A stretch of DNA of 64,000 nt, taken from assembly GCA_031552765.1 (NCBI GenBank), contig JAVBME010000008.1, positions 66,095 through 130,094 of the forward strand, read 5' to 3'. The notes beneath the pieces were generated by a model, which saw nothing but the letters and a program-made list of their open reading frames with translations, was not told the origin of the DNA and did no database searches. The DNA comes from Acidaminococcales bacterium (GTDB lineage Bacteria > Bacillota > Negativicutes > Acidaminococcales > JAISLQ01). Shown here one piece after another: positions 11,363-56,096 of this stretch (positions within the stretch are counted from its first letter, which is position 1; every line of letters begins with the position of its first letter). Position numbers and translations under genes: made by a program.

Positions 11363-11983
11363 TCAAATAAAGATCCCTACGAACATTTTCATGCCGCCAA
11401 GCAAAAAGCTTGCTATGGGCGAAAGGACCATGCCTGTCACGCCAAATACGATCAGGCCGATGAGTATAAACTGGCTGTACGGTTCTATTTGCATCAGCGC
11501 ATAGGCCTGCCTGCCTGGCAGCATGCTCATGAGTATCTTGGAGCCGTCAAGCGGCGGTATTGGCATAAGATTGAAAAGAGCAAACCAGATGTTGTACAGT
11601 TGCAGCCAGATGAGGAATTTTAATACTCCTACACCAAGCAACTGGAATTTTACCATAACGGCAAACAGCACCACGCCGATAAAAGCAATCAAAAGGTTGG
11701 AGCCTGGCCCGGCAAAAGAAACCGCCATCATGCCCTTACGCCCGTCGCGAAAATAGGAAGGATTTACCGGTACCGGCTTGGCCCAGCCAAAACCGACCAA
11801 AAATAGCGCCAGGGTGCCGAAGGGATCAAGGTGTACCAATGGATTCATCGTAAGGCGTCCCATATAACGCGGCGTCGGATCGCCCATAGAGTCGGCGACG
11901 ACCGCATGAGCGTATTCGTGCACTGTTAAAGCTATTAGCAGAGCCGGAATACGATATAGTGCTTCATAACTAAAGTCAAACAT
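11363..11983 (-). CDS. site-2 protease family (peptidase M50) membrane protein
   Basis: 206 aa with HEYAHA (HExxH) in the first transmembrane region and multiple hydrophobic helices. Confidence 0.8.
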
Positions 11984-12059
11984 TTTTTCCTCCGGTCAGA
12001 CAATTTCAATTATTTAATTATACTAGATTTTTCCCTATAGTAAAAGGGATTTAAACTTT

Positions 12060-12285
12060 GTAGTCAAACAACCCCAAAAAATAGAGCAAAGGCCGTTGCA
12101 GTTTTTGTTGTAGGCAAAAATAGCTTACGGCCATGCATACTTGGAAAGCATACATCTTTGCGGCCTATTTTCCCTAACACTATGTTGTCGTCAGTCGGAA
12201 TGCAGGAAGCATTCCTTCTTTCTTCGCCTTGTGTTCCGAAAAATATTCCCGCAATTCTACACTGGTTTTTAGGTTGCTTGACTAC
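12060..12285. ncRNA. candidate structured non-coding element (possible 6S-like or other sRNA, or a MITE-like repeat); family and strand unresolved
   Basis: A 355 bp gap has no ORF of 60 aa or more. The 14 nt arms GTAGTCAAACAACC (12060-12073) and GGTTGCTTGACTAC (12272-12285) are inverted repeats with one mismatch. Internal hairpins lie at 12091-12132 (about 14 bp) and 12197-12215 (GGAATGC/GCATTCC). Confidence 0.3.
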
Positions 12286-12287
12286 AT

Positions 12288-12321
12288 AAATACAGACTGC
12301 CCGCCAGAACAGTCTGTATTT
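12288..12321. terminator. hairpin directly downstream of lysA (possibly bidirectional)
   Basis: AAATACAGACTG-cccgccagaa-CAGTCTGTATTT is a perfect 12 bp stem. A short T run follows on both strands, and the plus side continues atagttttt. Confidence 0.6.
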
Positions 12322-12338
12322 ATAGTTTTTACCGCTGC

Positions 12339-13640
12339 TTACGGCAATATGTCATTGCGTATCAAATCTTCATAGGTCTCTCTTTTTACTACTACCCTGG
12401 CCCTTCCGTCCTGTACAAAAACGACGGCAGGTTTAAGGTTGCGGTTATAATTACTGGACATAGAGTAGTTATAAGCGCCGGTAGACGATACTACCAGTAT
12501 GTCACCCTTAGCGACAGGCGGCAGTTCAATGTCTTTTATCAGCATATCGCCGGATTCACAGCATTTGCCGGCAATAGATACCTTCTCTGTAGCCTTGTCG
12601 AGCATCCTGTTAGCTAAAGCTGCTTCGTATTTGGCGTCATACAACGCCGGGCGCGGGTTATCGGTCATGCCGCCGTCAATAGACACGTACTTTCTGATAC
12701 CGGGTATTTCTTTCACCGTGCCTATAGTATAAAGCGTGCAACCGGTCTCGCCTACCATCGAACGGCCCGGCTCAATGAGCAGCCTCGGTAGGTCTAGGCC
12801 GTGTTTGGCGCAGTTTGCCTTGACTTCTTTGACCAGGTTTTCCACAAAAGCGCTGAGCGTTTTTGGTTCGTCGCCCTCCGAATAATAGATGCCCAAGCCG
12901 CCGCCCAGGTTCAATTCTTCTACTGTCATACCGGTTTCTTTCTTTATTTGCGTCACAAAGCCGACCATGACCTCGACTGTTTCATTATAAGAAGCCAGGT
13001 CGAAAATTTGTGAACCGATATGGCAATGAATACCGACAAATTTCAAGTGTCTTTTCTGTGCGATTCTTTTTATCGCTTCCATGGCCTGGCCGTTGCTTAT
13101 AGCTACGCCAAATTTAGAGTCGATGAGGCCGGTTTTTATAAAGCTGTGCGTATGGGCGTCTATACCGGGCGATACCCGGAGCAGTACTTTGGCAGTTTTG
13201 CCCTTGGCCGCCGTCAGACCTTCCAGAAGGTCTATTTCCGGCATATTGTCTATGACAAAATGGCCTACGCCACTGTCGAGAGCGAGGTTGATTTCTTCCG
13301 GCAGCTTGTTATTGCCGTGAAAATAGGCTTTTTCCATAGGAAATCCTGCTTTTAGCGCAGTATAAATCTCGCCGCCGGAAACTACATCTATGCCCAGCCC
13401 TTCTTCCTCCACCAATTTACACATGGCGGCGGCCAAAAAGACCTTGCTGGCATAAAGAACGGTGAAATCAGGATAGCTGGCGCGAAAAGCTTCTGTATAT
13501 TCGCGGCAATTTGCCCGTATCTGGCCTTCGTCCATCACATATAAAGGGGAACCAAACTGCTCTATGAGGTCAATGGCGGAGCAGCCGCCTATTTCAAGTA
13601 TGCCTTTGCCGTTGATTTTCATGCTGGAAAGCAATTTCAT
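12339..13640 (-). CDS. lysA: diaminopimelate decarboxylase
   Basis: 433 aa with an alanine-racemase-fold PLP decarboxylase pattern (YASKVF Lys region, EPGRSMV, CESGD). Confidence 0.92.
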   Translation of the reverse strand: MKLLSSMKINGKGILEIGGCSAIDLIEQFGSPLYVMDEGQIRANCREYTEAFRASYPDFTVLYASKVFLAAAMCKLVEEEGLGIDVVSGGEIYTALKAGFPMEKAYFHGNNKLPEEINLALDSGVGHFVIDNMPEIDLLEGLTAAKGKTAKVLLRVSPGIDAHTHSFIKTGLIDSKFGVAISNGQAMEAIKRIAQKRHLKFVGIHCHIGSQIFDLASYNETVEVMVGFVTQIKKETGMTVEELNLGGGLGIYYSEGDEPKTLSAFVENLVKEVKANCAKHGLDLPRLLIEPGRSMVGETGCTLYTIGTVKEIPGIRKYVSIDGGMTDNPRPALYDAKYEAALANRMLDKATEKVSIAGKCCESGDMLIKDIELPPVAKGDILVVSSTGAYNYSMSSNYNRNLKPAVVFVQDGRARVVVKRETYEDLIRNDILP

Positions 13641-13681
13641 TAAGTTTCAGTCACCTCTTTGCTATATTTTAGTCAGATTAT

Positions 13682-13714
13682 GCAAAAGGATTGTGAGAGC
13701 TCCCACAACCCTTT
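13682..13714 (-). terminator. rho-independent terminator after the enoyl-CoA hydratase gene
   Basis: The minus strand reads GGGTTGTGGGAGCTCTCACAATCC followed by TTTTGC. This is about 10 bp of stem with two G:U pairs. Confidence 0.65.
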
Positions 13715-13759
13715 GCTACATACATTATATAAAATATAGCCGTCTAAAACAAGAAAAAA

Positions 13760-18969: not shown

Positions 18970-19195
18970 AATTAAAAATGATTGCGATGAAGGAAATAAG
19001 TATCTGCGATGTTTTTCCTAGAGAGCCGGGTCAGGTGCAAGCCGGTAAAAACTAACAGCGAAAGCCTCTCCCGAGCAGTATATGAAGAATATACCGCAAG
19101 CCGGCGATAAAGGCATTGAGTGTTGCTGGCAGCGTACAGCAGAACACAGGTGGTACCGCGGAATTTCCGTCCTGATTTTCAGGGCGGTTTTTTAT
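18970..19195 (+). promoter_or_regulatory. T-box riboswitch leader (tRNA-sensing transcription attenuator)
   Basis: Stem I base TTGCGATGAAGGAAATAAGTA (K-turn/AGTA). AG bulge and distal loop TAGAGAGCCGGGTCAGGTGCAAGCCGG. T-box sequence AACACAGGTGGTACCGCGG (19143-19161). Terminator CCGTCCTGA-ttt-TCAGGGCGG plus TTTTTT (19167-19194). Confidence 0.9.
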
Positions 19196-34939: not shown

Positions 34940-35135
34940 AAAAAAAGCCATACGGACATCAGAAAATGGTCGTATGACTTTTACATCTCTTCTACGCCCT
35001 TTCTCATCCAGACTATACTGTCGGTCCCGGAATCACACCGGGTCATGCTGCGCAAACAGCTCGCGGACTTTTACCGCCGGTAGGGAGTTGGCCGTGGCCT
35101 CACCCTGCCCCAAAGGCTACTTATTAAATTTAACA
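34940..35135 (-). promoter_or_regulatory. FMN riboswitch (RFN element) with terminator
   Basis: The minus strand reads GGGGCAGGGTGAGGCCACGGCCAACTCCCTACCGGCGGTAAAAGTCCGCGAGC...CCGGTGTGATTCCGGGACCGACAGTATAGTCTGGATGAGAAAGGG, which matches RFN conserved blocks. A CATACGAC/GTCCGTATG hairpin plus TTTTTTT lies at 34979-34940. Confidence 0.92.
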
Positions 35136-48136: not shown

Positions 48137-48300
48137 TAAAAAATAAAACCCCTTATTTGGGGTATGTTTTATAGTCACATTTCCCCATCTTGCGGTCGCG
48201 CCGCCGGAATTGGCACCGTTTGGCAAAAGCCATGGTTGCCGCGGTTTCATCGGGCCTTTCCCTCAACCAACTCTTGATGAGCATCATATTTAATTTAAAA
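48137..48300 (-). promoter_or_regulatory. SAM-I (S-box) riboswitch with terminator
   Basis: The minus strand reads CTCATCAAGAGTTGGTTGAGGGAAAGGCCCGATGAAACCGCGGCAACC...GGTGCCAATTCCGGCGG...AGATGGGG, which matches S-box blocks. The ACCCC-aaataa-GGGGT terminator with TTTTATTTTTT lies at 48170-48137. Confidence 0.92.
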
Positions 48301-53415: not shown

Positions 53416-53577
53416 AACAACACCTCGCAACATTATGAATAAATATAGAAATAAAATTCAAAGATTGGCAGGATATATTTTATCATGGAACAAGCTATTT
53501 AACAAGTTCTATCATTGACCGGCAGCTATATATGGCATATACTTAAACAAAATCTTCATTGGGGGAGCACTACAGCT

Positions 53578-55302
53578 ATGAATCTTGAGGGCATTGCCAT
53601 ATCGCTGCAAAAAGATTTTCTCTGCGAAAAACTGCCAGGCGCGCGTATAGATAAAATATATCAGCCGGAACGCCTTTCGCTGTTTTTCCAGTTAAGGAAT
53701 AATAACTCCAATATGTTTTTTTATGCAACTTGCGGAAACTCGCCACACATTCGCATAACAGATAAAACACCGGAAAATCCGGAAAATCCCCCCTCTTTTT
53801 GCATGTTGCTCAGGAAACATTTGGAAAATGGCCGGATAATGCAAATAGCCCAGCATAAACTGGACCGGATAATTATTATGGATATAGATACATTGGGCAA
53901 GGGTAAAAATATAGTAACAAAACAACTGGTTTTTGAGTTGACAGGAAAAAGCAGTAACATAATTTTTTTGCAGGACAATATTATCATTGATTGTTTAAAA
54001 CATATCGGACCGTCGGTCAGCCGTTTCAGGCAATTGCTGCCCGGCCGCGAATACATGCCGCCGCCGCAAAAAGAAGGTTTTAATATATTGTCGGCTCAGG
54101 CGCTAGAGATAGTCCACGCTTTGCCTGCAAGCGCTAAATCACTCAGTAAAAGTTTGATAGAACAGACATTGGGCATCGGTCCGCTCACCGCAAACGAGAT
54201 CGCCTGGCGCGCCGGCCTCCCACCCGACCTGCCGGCCGCTAATCTTGATGCAAAAGACAGCGTAGCTTTATGTGAGGCGATAGAAAGCATAGTACTGCCG
54301 ATAAAAAATAATGCCGCCCGCTCTTTCGTTGCTGTAGATAATGAAGGCGGCCTCCTTGCGGTAGCTCCTTTCGCGCCTCAGCATTTGCCGTCAGGACAAG
54401 TAAAAGAATTTGCCACAATGAATGCGGCAATCTCCTTTGCCATTAAGTTGCAACCGGCGAAAAGCCCTCTAAATGTCACCCTGTCTAAACAGGTTCGGAG
54501 CGAAATAACGCGCCTCGAAAAGAAAATGGATATCCTTAGCGAAGAAACAGTTGCGGCCCAGAATGCGGACAGGTTAAAAGAAACGGCCGATAATATAATG
54601 TCCCAGCTCTATGCCATAAAAAAAGGGGAAGAGCTTTGCCTTGTCACAGATATTTTTACCGGCGAACAGATAGAAATCAAACTGGATCCCTTGCTTACTC
54701 CGGTAGAAAATGCCCAGCGTTACTACAAACTATATAATAAGGCCAAACGCGCTGTCAGCCAATTGCAGCAGCAAACGCGCGAAAGCTCTGAATTGCTGGA
54801 TTACCTTATGGGGGTAGAGTTTTCTTTAGAAGAAGCAAAAACGTCCGGCGAGGTTTTGGAAATAAAAAATGAACTTCTTGCCGCCGGTATACTACAGGAA
54901 AAAACTTACCGCCCGCTTCGTACGCAAATAAGCCAACCCTGGAAAATAACTCTGGCGTCAGGGGCTATCATATATGTAGGAAAAAACAACCGGCAAAATG
55001 ACCAACTGACCTTTAAAACAGCAAAAGCAGGCGATCTGTGGCTGCATGCCAAAAACATCCCGGGCTCTCATGTAATATTGCAAAACAGCAGCCCGGACAA
55101 CCAGGAAGGCCTCTTTACCGCCGCGCTTTTGGCGGCTTGGTTTAGTAAGGCACGCAGATCTTCCAACATACCGGTCGATTACACATTTAAAAAACATGTC
55201 AAAAAACCGGCCGGCGCCCGGCCAGGCTTCGTCATTTACGAACAGCAGAAAACCATCCAAGTAACTACTGATGAAGAAAAAATCAAACACATACTCCAAT
55301 GA
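53578..55302 (+). CDS. rqcH: ribosome quality control protein RqcH (NFACT/FbpA family)
   Basis: The track ORF starts at 53515; ATG 53578 (MNLEGIAISLQKDF...) is the likely start. NFACT-N, a coiled coil and an NFACT-R/DUF814 block (LHAKNIPGSHVIL). Confidence 0.88.
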   Translation: MNLEGIAISLQKDFLCEKLPGARIDKIYQPERLSLFFQLRNNNSNMFFYATCGNSPHIRITDKTPENPENPPSFCMLLRKHLENGRIMQIAQHKLDRIIIMDIDTLGKGKNIVTKQLVFELTGKSSNIIFLQDNIIIDCLKHIGPSVSRFRQLLPGREYMPPPQKEGFNILSAQALEIVHALPASAKSLSKSLIEQTLGIGPLTANEIAWRAGLPPDLPAANLDAKDSVALCEAIESIVLPIKNNAARSFVAVDNEGGLLAVAPFAPQHLPSGQVKEFATMNAAISFAIKLQPAKSPLNVTLSKQVRSEITRLEKKMDILSEETVAAQNADRLKETADNIMSQLYAIKKGEELCLVTDIFTGEQIEIKLDPLLTPVENAQRYYKLYNKAKRAVSQLQQQTRESSELLDYLMGVEFSLEEAKTSGEVLEIKNELLAAGILQEKTYRPLRTQISQPWKITLASGAIIYVGKNNRQNDQLTFKTAKAGDLWLHAKNIPGSHVILQNSSPDNQEGLFTAALLAAWFSKARRSSNIPVDYTFKKHVKKPAGARPGFVIYEQQKTIQVTTDEEKIKHILQ

Positions 55303-55304
55303 TG

Positions 55305-55351
55305 AAAAACAGCAGGCAGCTTGAAAGATGGAAAGCTGCCCGCTGTTTTTT
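55305..55351. terminator. bidirectional terminator between convergent rqcH and the PAP2 gene
   Basis: AAAAACAGCAGGCAGCTT-gaaagatgg-AAGCTGCCCGCTGTTTTTT, about 13 bp of stem with one mismatch. Confidence 0.8.
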
Positions 55352-56096
55352 AATGTCCCAGTAAATGTTTTTTATTCATATTTATTCGCAGCTTAGCAAG
55401 CACATCTGGCTGCTCCACCAGCCTGTTTATCAATAGCAATATTGACCAGGCCAGCGCGGTGACAAAAAGCGTGTGACTTAAAAAATGCTCGCCTCTTAAC
55501 ATTTGGTAGATGCCCATATACCAGCCTAACCCCAAGGCTAACGCCCGCGCTATACGGCGCTTTTTTTCTTCGGCAAAACAAAAATACAATACCATCAAGG
55601 CCAGCCCCCCGCTGGCATGGCCGGCGGGAAAACCGGCGCCGCGCGAAATCTGCACAAAATTTGCCGGGTATTTTCTTAGCGCTGGCGCGTAAGGATTGGC
55701 GCCATTATAACGCTGTATCTGGTAAGGGCAATATACATTGGTGATATCTTTCAATATACCGACACAAGAAGGAATGAGCGCTAAGGCCAGAAAAATCTTA
55801 AGGAAATTTTTCCGCCATTGCAGGAAGGCTCCTGTTTTCCGTGAATATATGTATGCGCCAATATTCAGTGCAGCAAATATGATCAAAAATGTTTTTGGCA
55901 GTGTGTACAGCAAAAAACCCCATTGTTCGTGAAAAACCTTACTGATAAACCATTGCCCGGTCTGGCGGTTGAAGAACAAATCCTGTAACCAAAGGTCAAA
56001 AGGGGTAAAACTTTCGAAAAACAAAATTATCACCATAGCAAACATTGGAAAGGAAAGTTTTTTTAGAAATGATCTCTTCTCTTTCATAATAATCAT
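55350..56096 (-). CDS. PAP2 superfamily membrane phosphatase (lipid phosphatase type)
   Basis: 248 aa, polytopic, with FPAGHASGG (PSGH-like) and RGEHFLSHTL blocks. The start is either ATG 56096 or, better spaced from the RBS, ATG 56087. Confidence 0.75.
   Translation of the reverse strand: MIIMKEKRSFLKKLSFPMFAMVIILFFESFTPFDLWLQDLFFNRQTGQWFISKVFHEQWGFLLYTLPKTFLIIFAALNIGAYIYSRKTGAFLQWRKNFLKIFLALALIPSCVGILKDITNVYCPYQIQRYNGANPYAPALRKYPANFVQISRGAGFPAGHASGGLALMVLYFCFAEEKKRRIARALALGLGWYMGIYQMLRGEHFLSHTLFVTALAWSILLLINRLVEQPDVLAKLRINMNKKHLLGH

Follow-up and report, generated by a model that had tools for sequence, protein, structure and literature searches.

The spacer that separates lysA from an M50-family peptidase gene in the window analysed here (the whole stretch of 64,000 nucleotides from an Acidaminococcales bacterium) holds a non-coding insertion of 228 bp, located at 12059-12286 and assigned to neither strand. 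It is bounded by inverted repeats, reads 5'-TG...CA-3' at its ends, is missing from the orthologous spacers of relatives and has no homologue in the collections searched. Comparison of these loci suggests, with about an even chance of being right, that it is an orphan, small, non-autonomous DNA element, either MITE-like or an internally deleted IS relic, which inserted in this lineage. A first-pass annotation of the same DNA had likened the element to 6S or another small RNA and had named a MITE as the alternative. That alternative is now favoured, though unproven, on the strength of the inverted repeats, the non-coding character, the presence/absence pattern and the position between a terminator and a promoter.

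Position of the element and its terminal repeats

Both flanking genes lie on the minus strand, a point missing from the first-pass annotation: lysA is found at 12339-13640 (TIGR01048, 491 bits against a cut-off of 298) and the M50-family peptidase gene at 11363-11983 (PF02163), followed after 19 nt by trpS and then by scpA. The identity of trpS was confirmed alongside those of lysA and the M50 peptidase. The 355-bp spacer had been described as the largest gap in a compact region, and this holds for the neighbouring gaps, which measure 6, 19, 119 and 24 bp. Read along the direction of transcription, the spacer begins after the lysA stop codon and comprises the lysA terminator, the element, 14 nt (AAAGTTTAAATCCC), the M50-trpS promoter (12044-12017) and GGAGG, after which comes the ATG. 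The intrinsic terminator of lysA, whose hairpin had also been recognised correctly, lies at 12286-12323 on the minus strand. It is a perfect 14-bp hairpin (arms 12286-12299 and 12310-12323) orthologous to the CAGACTG...CAGTCTG hairpin at locus L001 of the nearest relative, and only a shortened T-tail, ATTTAT, is left to it at the junction with the element. The M50-trpS promoter, TTTACT-16-TATAAT (12017-12044, minus strand), is found downstream of the element; all relatives keep it in the form AAAATCyrGTATAAT. Since the element comes after the lysA terminator and before this conserved promoter, it is not a 5' leader and falls outside both transcription units, a site that argues for a MITE-like insertion.

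The M50-trpS arrangement is unusual for a Firmicutes-type trpS. The trpS gene carries no T-box leader, follows the M50 gene by 19-39 nt in all relatives examined and, as far as sequence can tell, is apparently co-transcribed with it from the conserved AAAATCyrGTATAAT promoter. Elsewhere in the window, Rfam matches were obtained for a T-box leader (18978-19177, plus strand, 105.6 bits), an FMN riboswitch (34992-35121, minus strand, 96.7 bits) and a SAM-I riboswitch (48182-48283, minus strand, 75.7 bits).

The element had previously been delimited by a 14-nt repeat, GTAGTCAAACAACC at 12060-12073 and a partner at 12272-12285 with one mismatch. Checked against the sequence, this repeat is real but understated, as its arms extend to 21 nt. 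The left terminal inverted repeat is TGTAGTCAAACAACCCCAAAA (12059-12079, plus strand) and the right one, read as its reverse complement, is TGTAGTCAAGCAACCTAAAAA (12266-12286, minus strand). The two arms are complementary at 18 of 21 positions and their outer ends are exactly 5'-TG...CA-3'. When the 355-nt spacer was shuffled with its dinucleotide composition preserved, an 18/21 match was reached in 1 of 1000 shuffles and a 13/14 match in 12 of 1000. The 21-nt inverted repeat with its TG...CA ends is beyond chance, and such rarely matched ends speak for a MITE-like element. At 12277:12068, the sole non-Watson-Crick position of the shorter repeat, the minus strand has a G:U pair and the plus strand A:C, as the first-pass annotation had it; over the full arms the differences number three, and two of these are transitions yielding minus-strand G:U pairs. 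The ends of the element, TGTAGTCAA... (as a 15-mer, TGTAGTCAARCAACC), carry the hexamer TTGACT facing outward and similar to a -35 element.

The tetranucleotide TAAA, a possible target-site duplication, occurs on both sides in AT-rich flanks, with its left copy at 12052-12055, 3 nt outside the TG end, and its right copy at 12287-12290, directly after the CA end. No clean duplication of 3-4 bp abutting the TG and CA ends was found, the left TAAA copy being offset, and this counts against a MITE-like origin. A single further, directly oriented occurrence of the repeat core lies within the element (12108-12118 versus 12058-12068, TTGTAGGCAAA versus TTGTAGTCAAA, 10 of 11 positions); it could be a subterminal transposase-binding repeat or a chance match. 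A 9-mer of the left arm, AGTCAAACA (12062-12070), is found again at 11974-11982, in the coding start of the M50 gene (ATGTTTGACT, minus strand), probably by chance.

The locus in related genomes and the search for copies

By its M50 protein the organism falls within Acidaminococcales-like Negativicutes; the best database relatives of this protein were one entry of 100% identity and one of 82%. The genome encoding the latter, GCA_031551525.1 (loci L001 and L134), was the nearest compared. Its gene order is IMPDH, ECH, lysA, M50, trpS, scpA and scpB, with which the window agrees as far as scpA, and its lysA-M50 spacer measures 101 bp against 355 bp in the window. In that spacer, the CAGACTG...CAGTCTG terminator and its TCTTTTTTG tail are followed immediately by TTTTACTAT...AAAATCTAGTATAAT, the same promoter as in the window. 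BLAST over about 15 kb yielded two collinear blocks of 70-73% nucleotide identity (window 17148-12352 with L134 5109-9889, and window 12045-2048 with L134 9940-19931). The sole break in this collinearity sets window 12046-12351 against 50 nt in L134, a surplus of 256 nt.

Six loci from more distant relatives (L003, L127, L128, L129, L130 and L131), encoding four distinct M50 proteins, were also compared. In all six, the terminator hairpin and T-run of the upstream gene lead directly into AAAATCyrGTATAAT, in spacers of 108-141 bp. No element-like sequence was found in any relative's locus that was fetched, which in the nearest relative covered the orthologous site and 20 kb around it. Judged by this comparison, the element is specific to the window's lineage among the relatives fetched, the empty sites coming from distant genomes (70-73% nucleotide identity) rather than from the strain level. 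Its presence in the window, set against an empty orthologous site in GCA_031551525.1 and in more distant relatives, is consistent with a MITE-like insertion. Gain is favoured over loss because the GCA_031551525.1 junction resembles the junctions in all other relatives, in a comparison where a single relative has lysA at the locus and the order of events is without strict polarity.

Among the loci compared, only the window and GCA_031551525.1 have lysA itself between the enoyl-CoA hydratase (ECH) gene and the M50 gene. In four of the distant loci (L003, L127, L129 and L130), ECH is followed directly by M50-trpS-scpA-scpB. The absence of lysA from the locus in distant relatives suggests that lysA is an older lineage-specific arrival.

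Multiple dispersed genome copies are the defining property of MITEs. No second copy or half-site was detected within the 64-kb window, and blastn against plasmids and phages returned no match to the element. Viral contigs contained no match to the two-arm pattern, the 21-nt repeat end or a hairpin 23-mer, and JGI metagenomes contained none to the two-arm pattern. The source organism is apparently not included in the plasmid, phage, viral and JGI collections, so that the single known copy is only weak evidence against a MITE-like element. A second point of this kind is that the 292,551-bp contig bearing the window's M50 gene, if it is the source, runs unbroken through the element, which argues against many identical copies. 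The 21-nt repeat end gave two matches in JGI metagenomes, about the number expected by chance and both inside unrelated sequence, and the 15-mer TGTAGTCAARCAACC gave at least 120 matches in species-representative genomes (596 Gb), all of those listed being chance matches. In one metagenome-assembled genome, JAZDHY01 ('bacterium isolate MEGAHIT-group-0.373'), four contigs (L044, L057, L072 and L090) carry one and the same stretch of more than 130 nt, three times at contig ends, indicating a multi-copy repeat in that unrelated genome. This cluster was rejected as copies of the element, since only the 15-mer is common to both, by chance.

The element is small and encodes neither a transposase nor any other recognisable product, as expected of a MITE-like element; among its ORFs that have a start codon, the longest span 34-48 aa. 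Six-frame (stop-to-stop) translations had no relative among 5.8 billion proteins, and the element is thus not a recognisable pseudogene. An autonomous IS with the same ends was found neither in the window nor, by means of the 21-nt end, in the viral and metagenome collections, and a MITE-like origin is weakened to the extent that a parent IS with these ends was not identified. Our literature search on MITEs in Negativicutes found nothing relevant. Rfam at the gathering score, applied to the whole window, reported nothing in the lysA-M50 spacer; at E <= 10, positions 11900-12400 (501 nt) gave eukaryotic chance matches only (ciliate, snoRNA) and no 6S model. ARAGORN detected no tRNA or tmRNA in the element. 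There is likewise no consensus promoter inside it, the best candidate being TAGTCA-19-TAGAAT on the minus strand, with 9 of 12 positions matching and off-optimum spacing. The lack of a good internal promoter, an Rfam family and a tRNA-like gene agrees with a mobile DNA element.

Predicted fold and competing explanations

The 226 nt first delimited fold on the minus strand with -86.4 kcal/mol, compared to -52.3 +/- 4.4 for shuffled sequences (z -7.8), and on the plus strand with -67.1 kcal/mol, compared to -48.7 +/- 4.2 (z -4.4). The same fold was retained within the whole spacer (z -9.4). The in-register element has a GC-corrected energy residual of about -34 kcal/mol, and the most extreme of 3190 sliding 226-nt windows over the 64 kb reaches -26, a comparison biased toward the element since these windows were out of register with any structures of their own. 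The place in the window that comes next in degree of structure is 55285-55370, where a hairpin whose arms measure 38 nt lies between two convergent ORFs (53515-55302, plus strand; 55350-56096, minus strand) and resembles an ordinary bidirectional terminator.

Minimum-free-energy and centroid predictions both give a 20-bp closing helix and a three-way junction, from which a 97-nt imperfect hairpin, a 10-bp hairpin and a GGCCGU hairpin are predicted to branch. The closing helix amounts to -24.1 kcal/mol on the minus strand and -18.1 kcal/mol on the plus strand. The long imperfect hairpin (12158-12254, minus strand), closed by UUGCGG/CCGCAA, reaches -33.0 kcal/mol on the minus and -25.7 on the plus strand. 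Its tip is the perfect 7-bp hairpin at 12197-12215 that had been correctly noted before; on the plus strand this tip together with TTCTTTCTTC scored as terminator-like. The 10-bp hairpin AUGUAUGCUU-UCC-AAGUAUGCAU (12133-12155) forms on the minus strand only (-9.1 kcal/mol, against -2.2 on the plus strand) and contains two G:U pairs, 12149:12139 and 12152:12136. The GGCCGU...ACGGCC hairpin, which the first-pass annotation had placed rightly at 12091-12132, slightly favours the plus strand (-19.3 versus -16.1 kcal/mol on the minus strand). On the minus strand it is followed by UUUGCUCUAUUUUUU (12075-12132 in all), and sequence and fold together make it a candidate for a second terminator acting on transcription from lysA, one that a consensus terminator scan did not call because of internal loops. 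On the minus strand three of the four helical modules have the lower energy, and the counts of G:U pairs are near-balanced, at 7 for the minus and 6 for the plus fold. These predictions suggest a modest to moderate preference for the minus strand, the strand of the flanking genes, which falls short of proving selection at the RNA level.

For a MITE-like insertion this fold cuts both ways. The near-balanced G:U pairs and the one hairpin that is better on the plus strand have the look of a decaying DNA palindrome. However, the interior consists of three separate hairpins rather than two fused IS ends, and the clearly greater stability of three modules and of the whole fold on the minus strand could reflect RNA-level selection. 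We propose that the inverted repeats were recognised by a transposase provided in trans, which would have moved the element into the few bases separating the lysA terminator from the M50-trpS promoter, where insertion does little harm. The strong RNA or DNA fold would then result mainly from nested palindromes rather than from selection for a function as RNA. Clipping of the lysA terminator T-tail would likely be a side-effect of the insertion, and the minus-strand hairpin with UUUGCUCUAUUUUUU could stop lysA read-through before it reaches the M50 promoter.

The main rival, an explanation that we consider unlikely, is that the element is a minus-strand gene for a structured small RNA which has either arisen or been acquired only recently. 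Such an RNA might start at the weak TAGTCA-19-TAGAAT promoter and end after about 170 nt at the GGCCGU...ACGGCC hairpin and its U-run, or it might stem from read-through of the lysA terminator and span the full ~228 nt with the 20-bp closing helix. Read-through transcripts are plausible because the element lies on the same strand as both neighbours and the lysA T-tail is now shortened. The very strong minus-strand fold (z -7.8), the greater stability on that strand of the closing helix, the 10-bp hairpin and the long hairpin, and a terminator-like hairpin with a U-run on the 3' side all point in this direction. They are opposed by the missing consensus promoter, by the orthologous locus without the element in every relative fetched, and by the lack of any Rfam match or of any homologue in the collections searched, so that covariation evidence is missing. 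A near-perfect 20-bp terminal duplex is, moreover, unusual for a stable small RNA and would be an RNase III substrate. Were the RNA to start from the weak promoter, it would lack the closing helix's 5' arm, and the 21-nt repeat would be left as a coincidence at about 1 in 1000. The small-RNA interpretation of the first-pass annotation is weakened by the finding that the spacer is not conserved in relatives, an outcome which that annotation had itself taken to speak against an RNA gene. In its more specific version, in which the predicted fold would define an undescribed family of structured non-coding RNA (170-230 nt, minus strand, a three-way junction closed by the 20-bp helix), mobile or recently acquired and made by lysA read-through or from the weak promoter, this explanation appears decidedly improbable. 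The element would be of interest only as an expressed RNA with homologues elsewhere.

Comparison of the loci bears on another explanation, that of a non-mobile relic, left for instance by a degraded small gene or by the DNA that brought lysA, which was cleanly lost in GCA_031551525.1 and not gained here. This we hold to be rather improbable. It would fit the restriction of lysA at this locus to the window and GCA_031551525.1, with the element at one edge of that older insertion, and with a single lysA-sharing relative gain and loss are not strictly polarised. Yet there is no protein-level echo in any frame, and the other edge of lysA (13641-13759) shows nothing similar. The terminator and promoter of GCA_031551525.1 abut as they do in relatives lacking lysA, an arrangement that a clean deletion would have to reproduce, and the 21-nt inverted repeat with TG...CA ends would be left unexplained.

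The location of the conserved promoter makes it very improbable that the element is a cis-regulatory leader of M50-trpS, that is, a riboswitch or attenuator in which two CGGCC copies act as alternative partners of GGCCG. Both copies are present at 12128-12132 and 12161-12165, as described previously; a terminator-like hairpin and a 5-nt alternative pairing exist, and the trpS gene downstream has no T-box of its own. However, the promoter kept in all relatives (12017-12044, minus strand) lies downstream of the element, and relatives have the same operon without it. No Rfam leader or riboswitch, T-box included, matched the element, a Trp-rich leader peptide is missing, and in 226 nt chance alone is expected to produce a repeated 5-mer.

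There is also little to recommend a type I toxin-like mRNA, in which the closing helix and the hairpin at 12133-12155 would sequester the AUG of a 34-codon ORF (12051-12155, minus strand). The ORF, MYAFQVCMAVSYFCLQQKLQRPLLYFLGLFDYKV, does exist and has its AUG inside the 10-bp hairpin, and pairing of 5' and 3' ends is typical of hok- and AapA-type toxin mRNAs. But the ORF lacks a Shine-Dalgarno sequence, its hydrophobic stretch is interrupted (QQKLQRP) so that no clear transmembrane helix results, it crosses the closing helix to a stop codon outside the element, and neither an antisense promoter nor a protein homologue was found. The same ORF was rejected as a small-protein gene, having no Shine-Dalgarno sequence or clean hydrophobic helix and running out of the element. 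From the sequence alone, we also rejected a retron msr/msd (no reverse transcriptase gene nearby), an integron attC site (core sites missing), a Trp leader peptide (the ORFs have no Trp codons) and a single-strand replication origin.

Finally, the earlier idea of a 6S RNA gene, for which the size of ~200 nt and the long closing helix would speak, is effectively refuted: RF00013 and the other 6S models were silent even at E <= 10 over 501 nt, the predicted three-way junction is not a rod with a central bubble, and the orthologous site in relatives lacks the element, whereas 6S RNA is a conserved housekeeping RNA.

If the element is a MITE-like relic, it would be of little importance in itself, adding a further family of short repeats to a Negativicutes lineage that is poorly sampled. 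Its main use would be as a warning to annotators against reading an RNA gene into a very strong fold z-score and a long closing helix, and it would also be a small example of an insertion that clips a terminator T-tail while supplying a replacement hairpin.

Likeness to known systems

Like riboswitch and attenuator leaders, the element combines a terminator-like hairpin with the option of a short alternative pairing, in which GGCCG meets either CGGCC copy. It differs from them in lying upstream of the conserved promoter of the operon, in being absent from relatives with the same operon and in having no Rfam match. Its size of ~200 nt and the long helix that pairs the 5' and 3' ends recall 6S RNA (RF00013), but a covariance-model match, a central bubble, conservation in relatives and a promoter are all missing.

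The ends of the element resemble those of IS3-, IS481- and IS21-type insertion sequences in starting with 5'-TG, in ending with CA-3' and in the outward TTGACT of its repeats, which recalls a -35 element. Unlike these insertion sequences, the element has no transposase gene and no abutting 3-4-bp duplication, and no IS with its ends was found.

Bacterial MITEs include the Correia elements (CREE) of Neisseria, RUP of Streptococcus pneumoniae and ERIC (IRU) of enterobacteria. The element departs from them in its one known copy, in having neither a clean target-site duplication nor a parent IS, in its three independent interior hairpins and in showing no similarity in the collections searched. 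With bacterial MITEs it shares a length within 100-400 bp, non-coding sequence, terminal inverted repeats and strong self-folding of both strands, together with an intergenic position beside terminators and promoters and presence or absence between related genomes.
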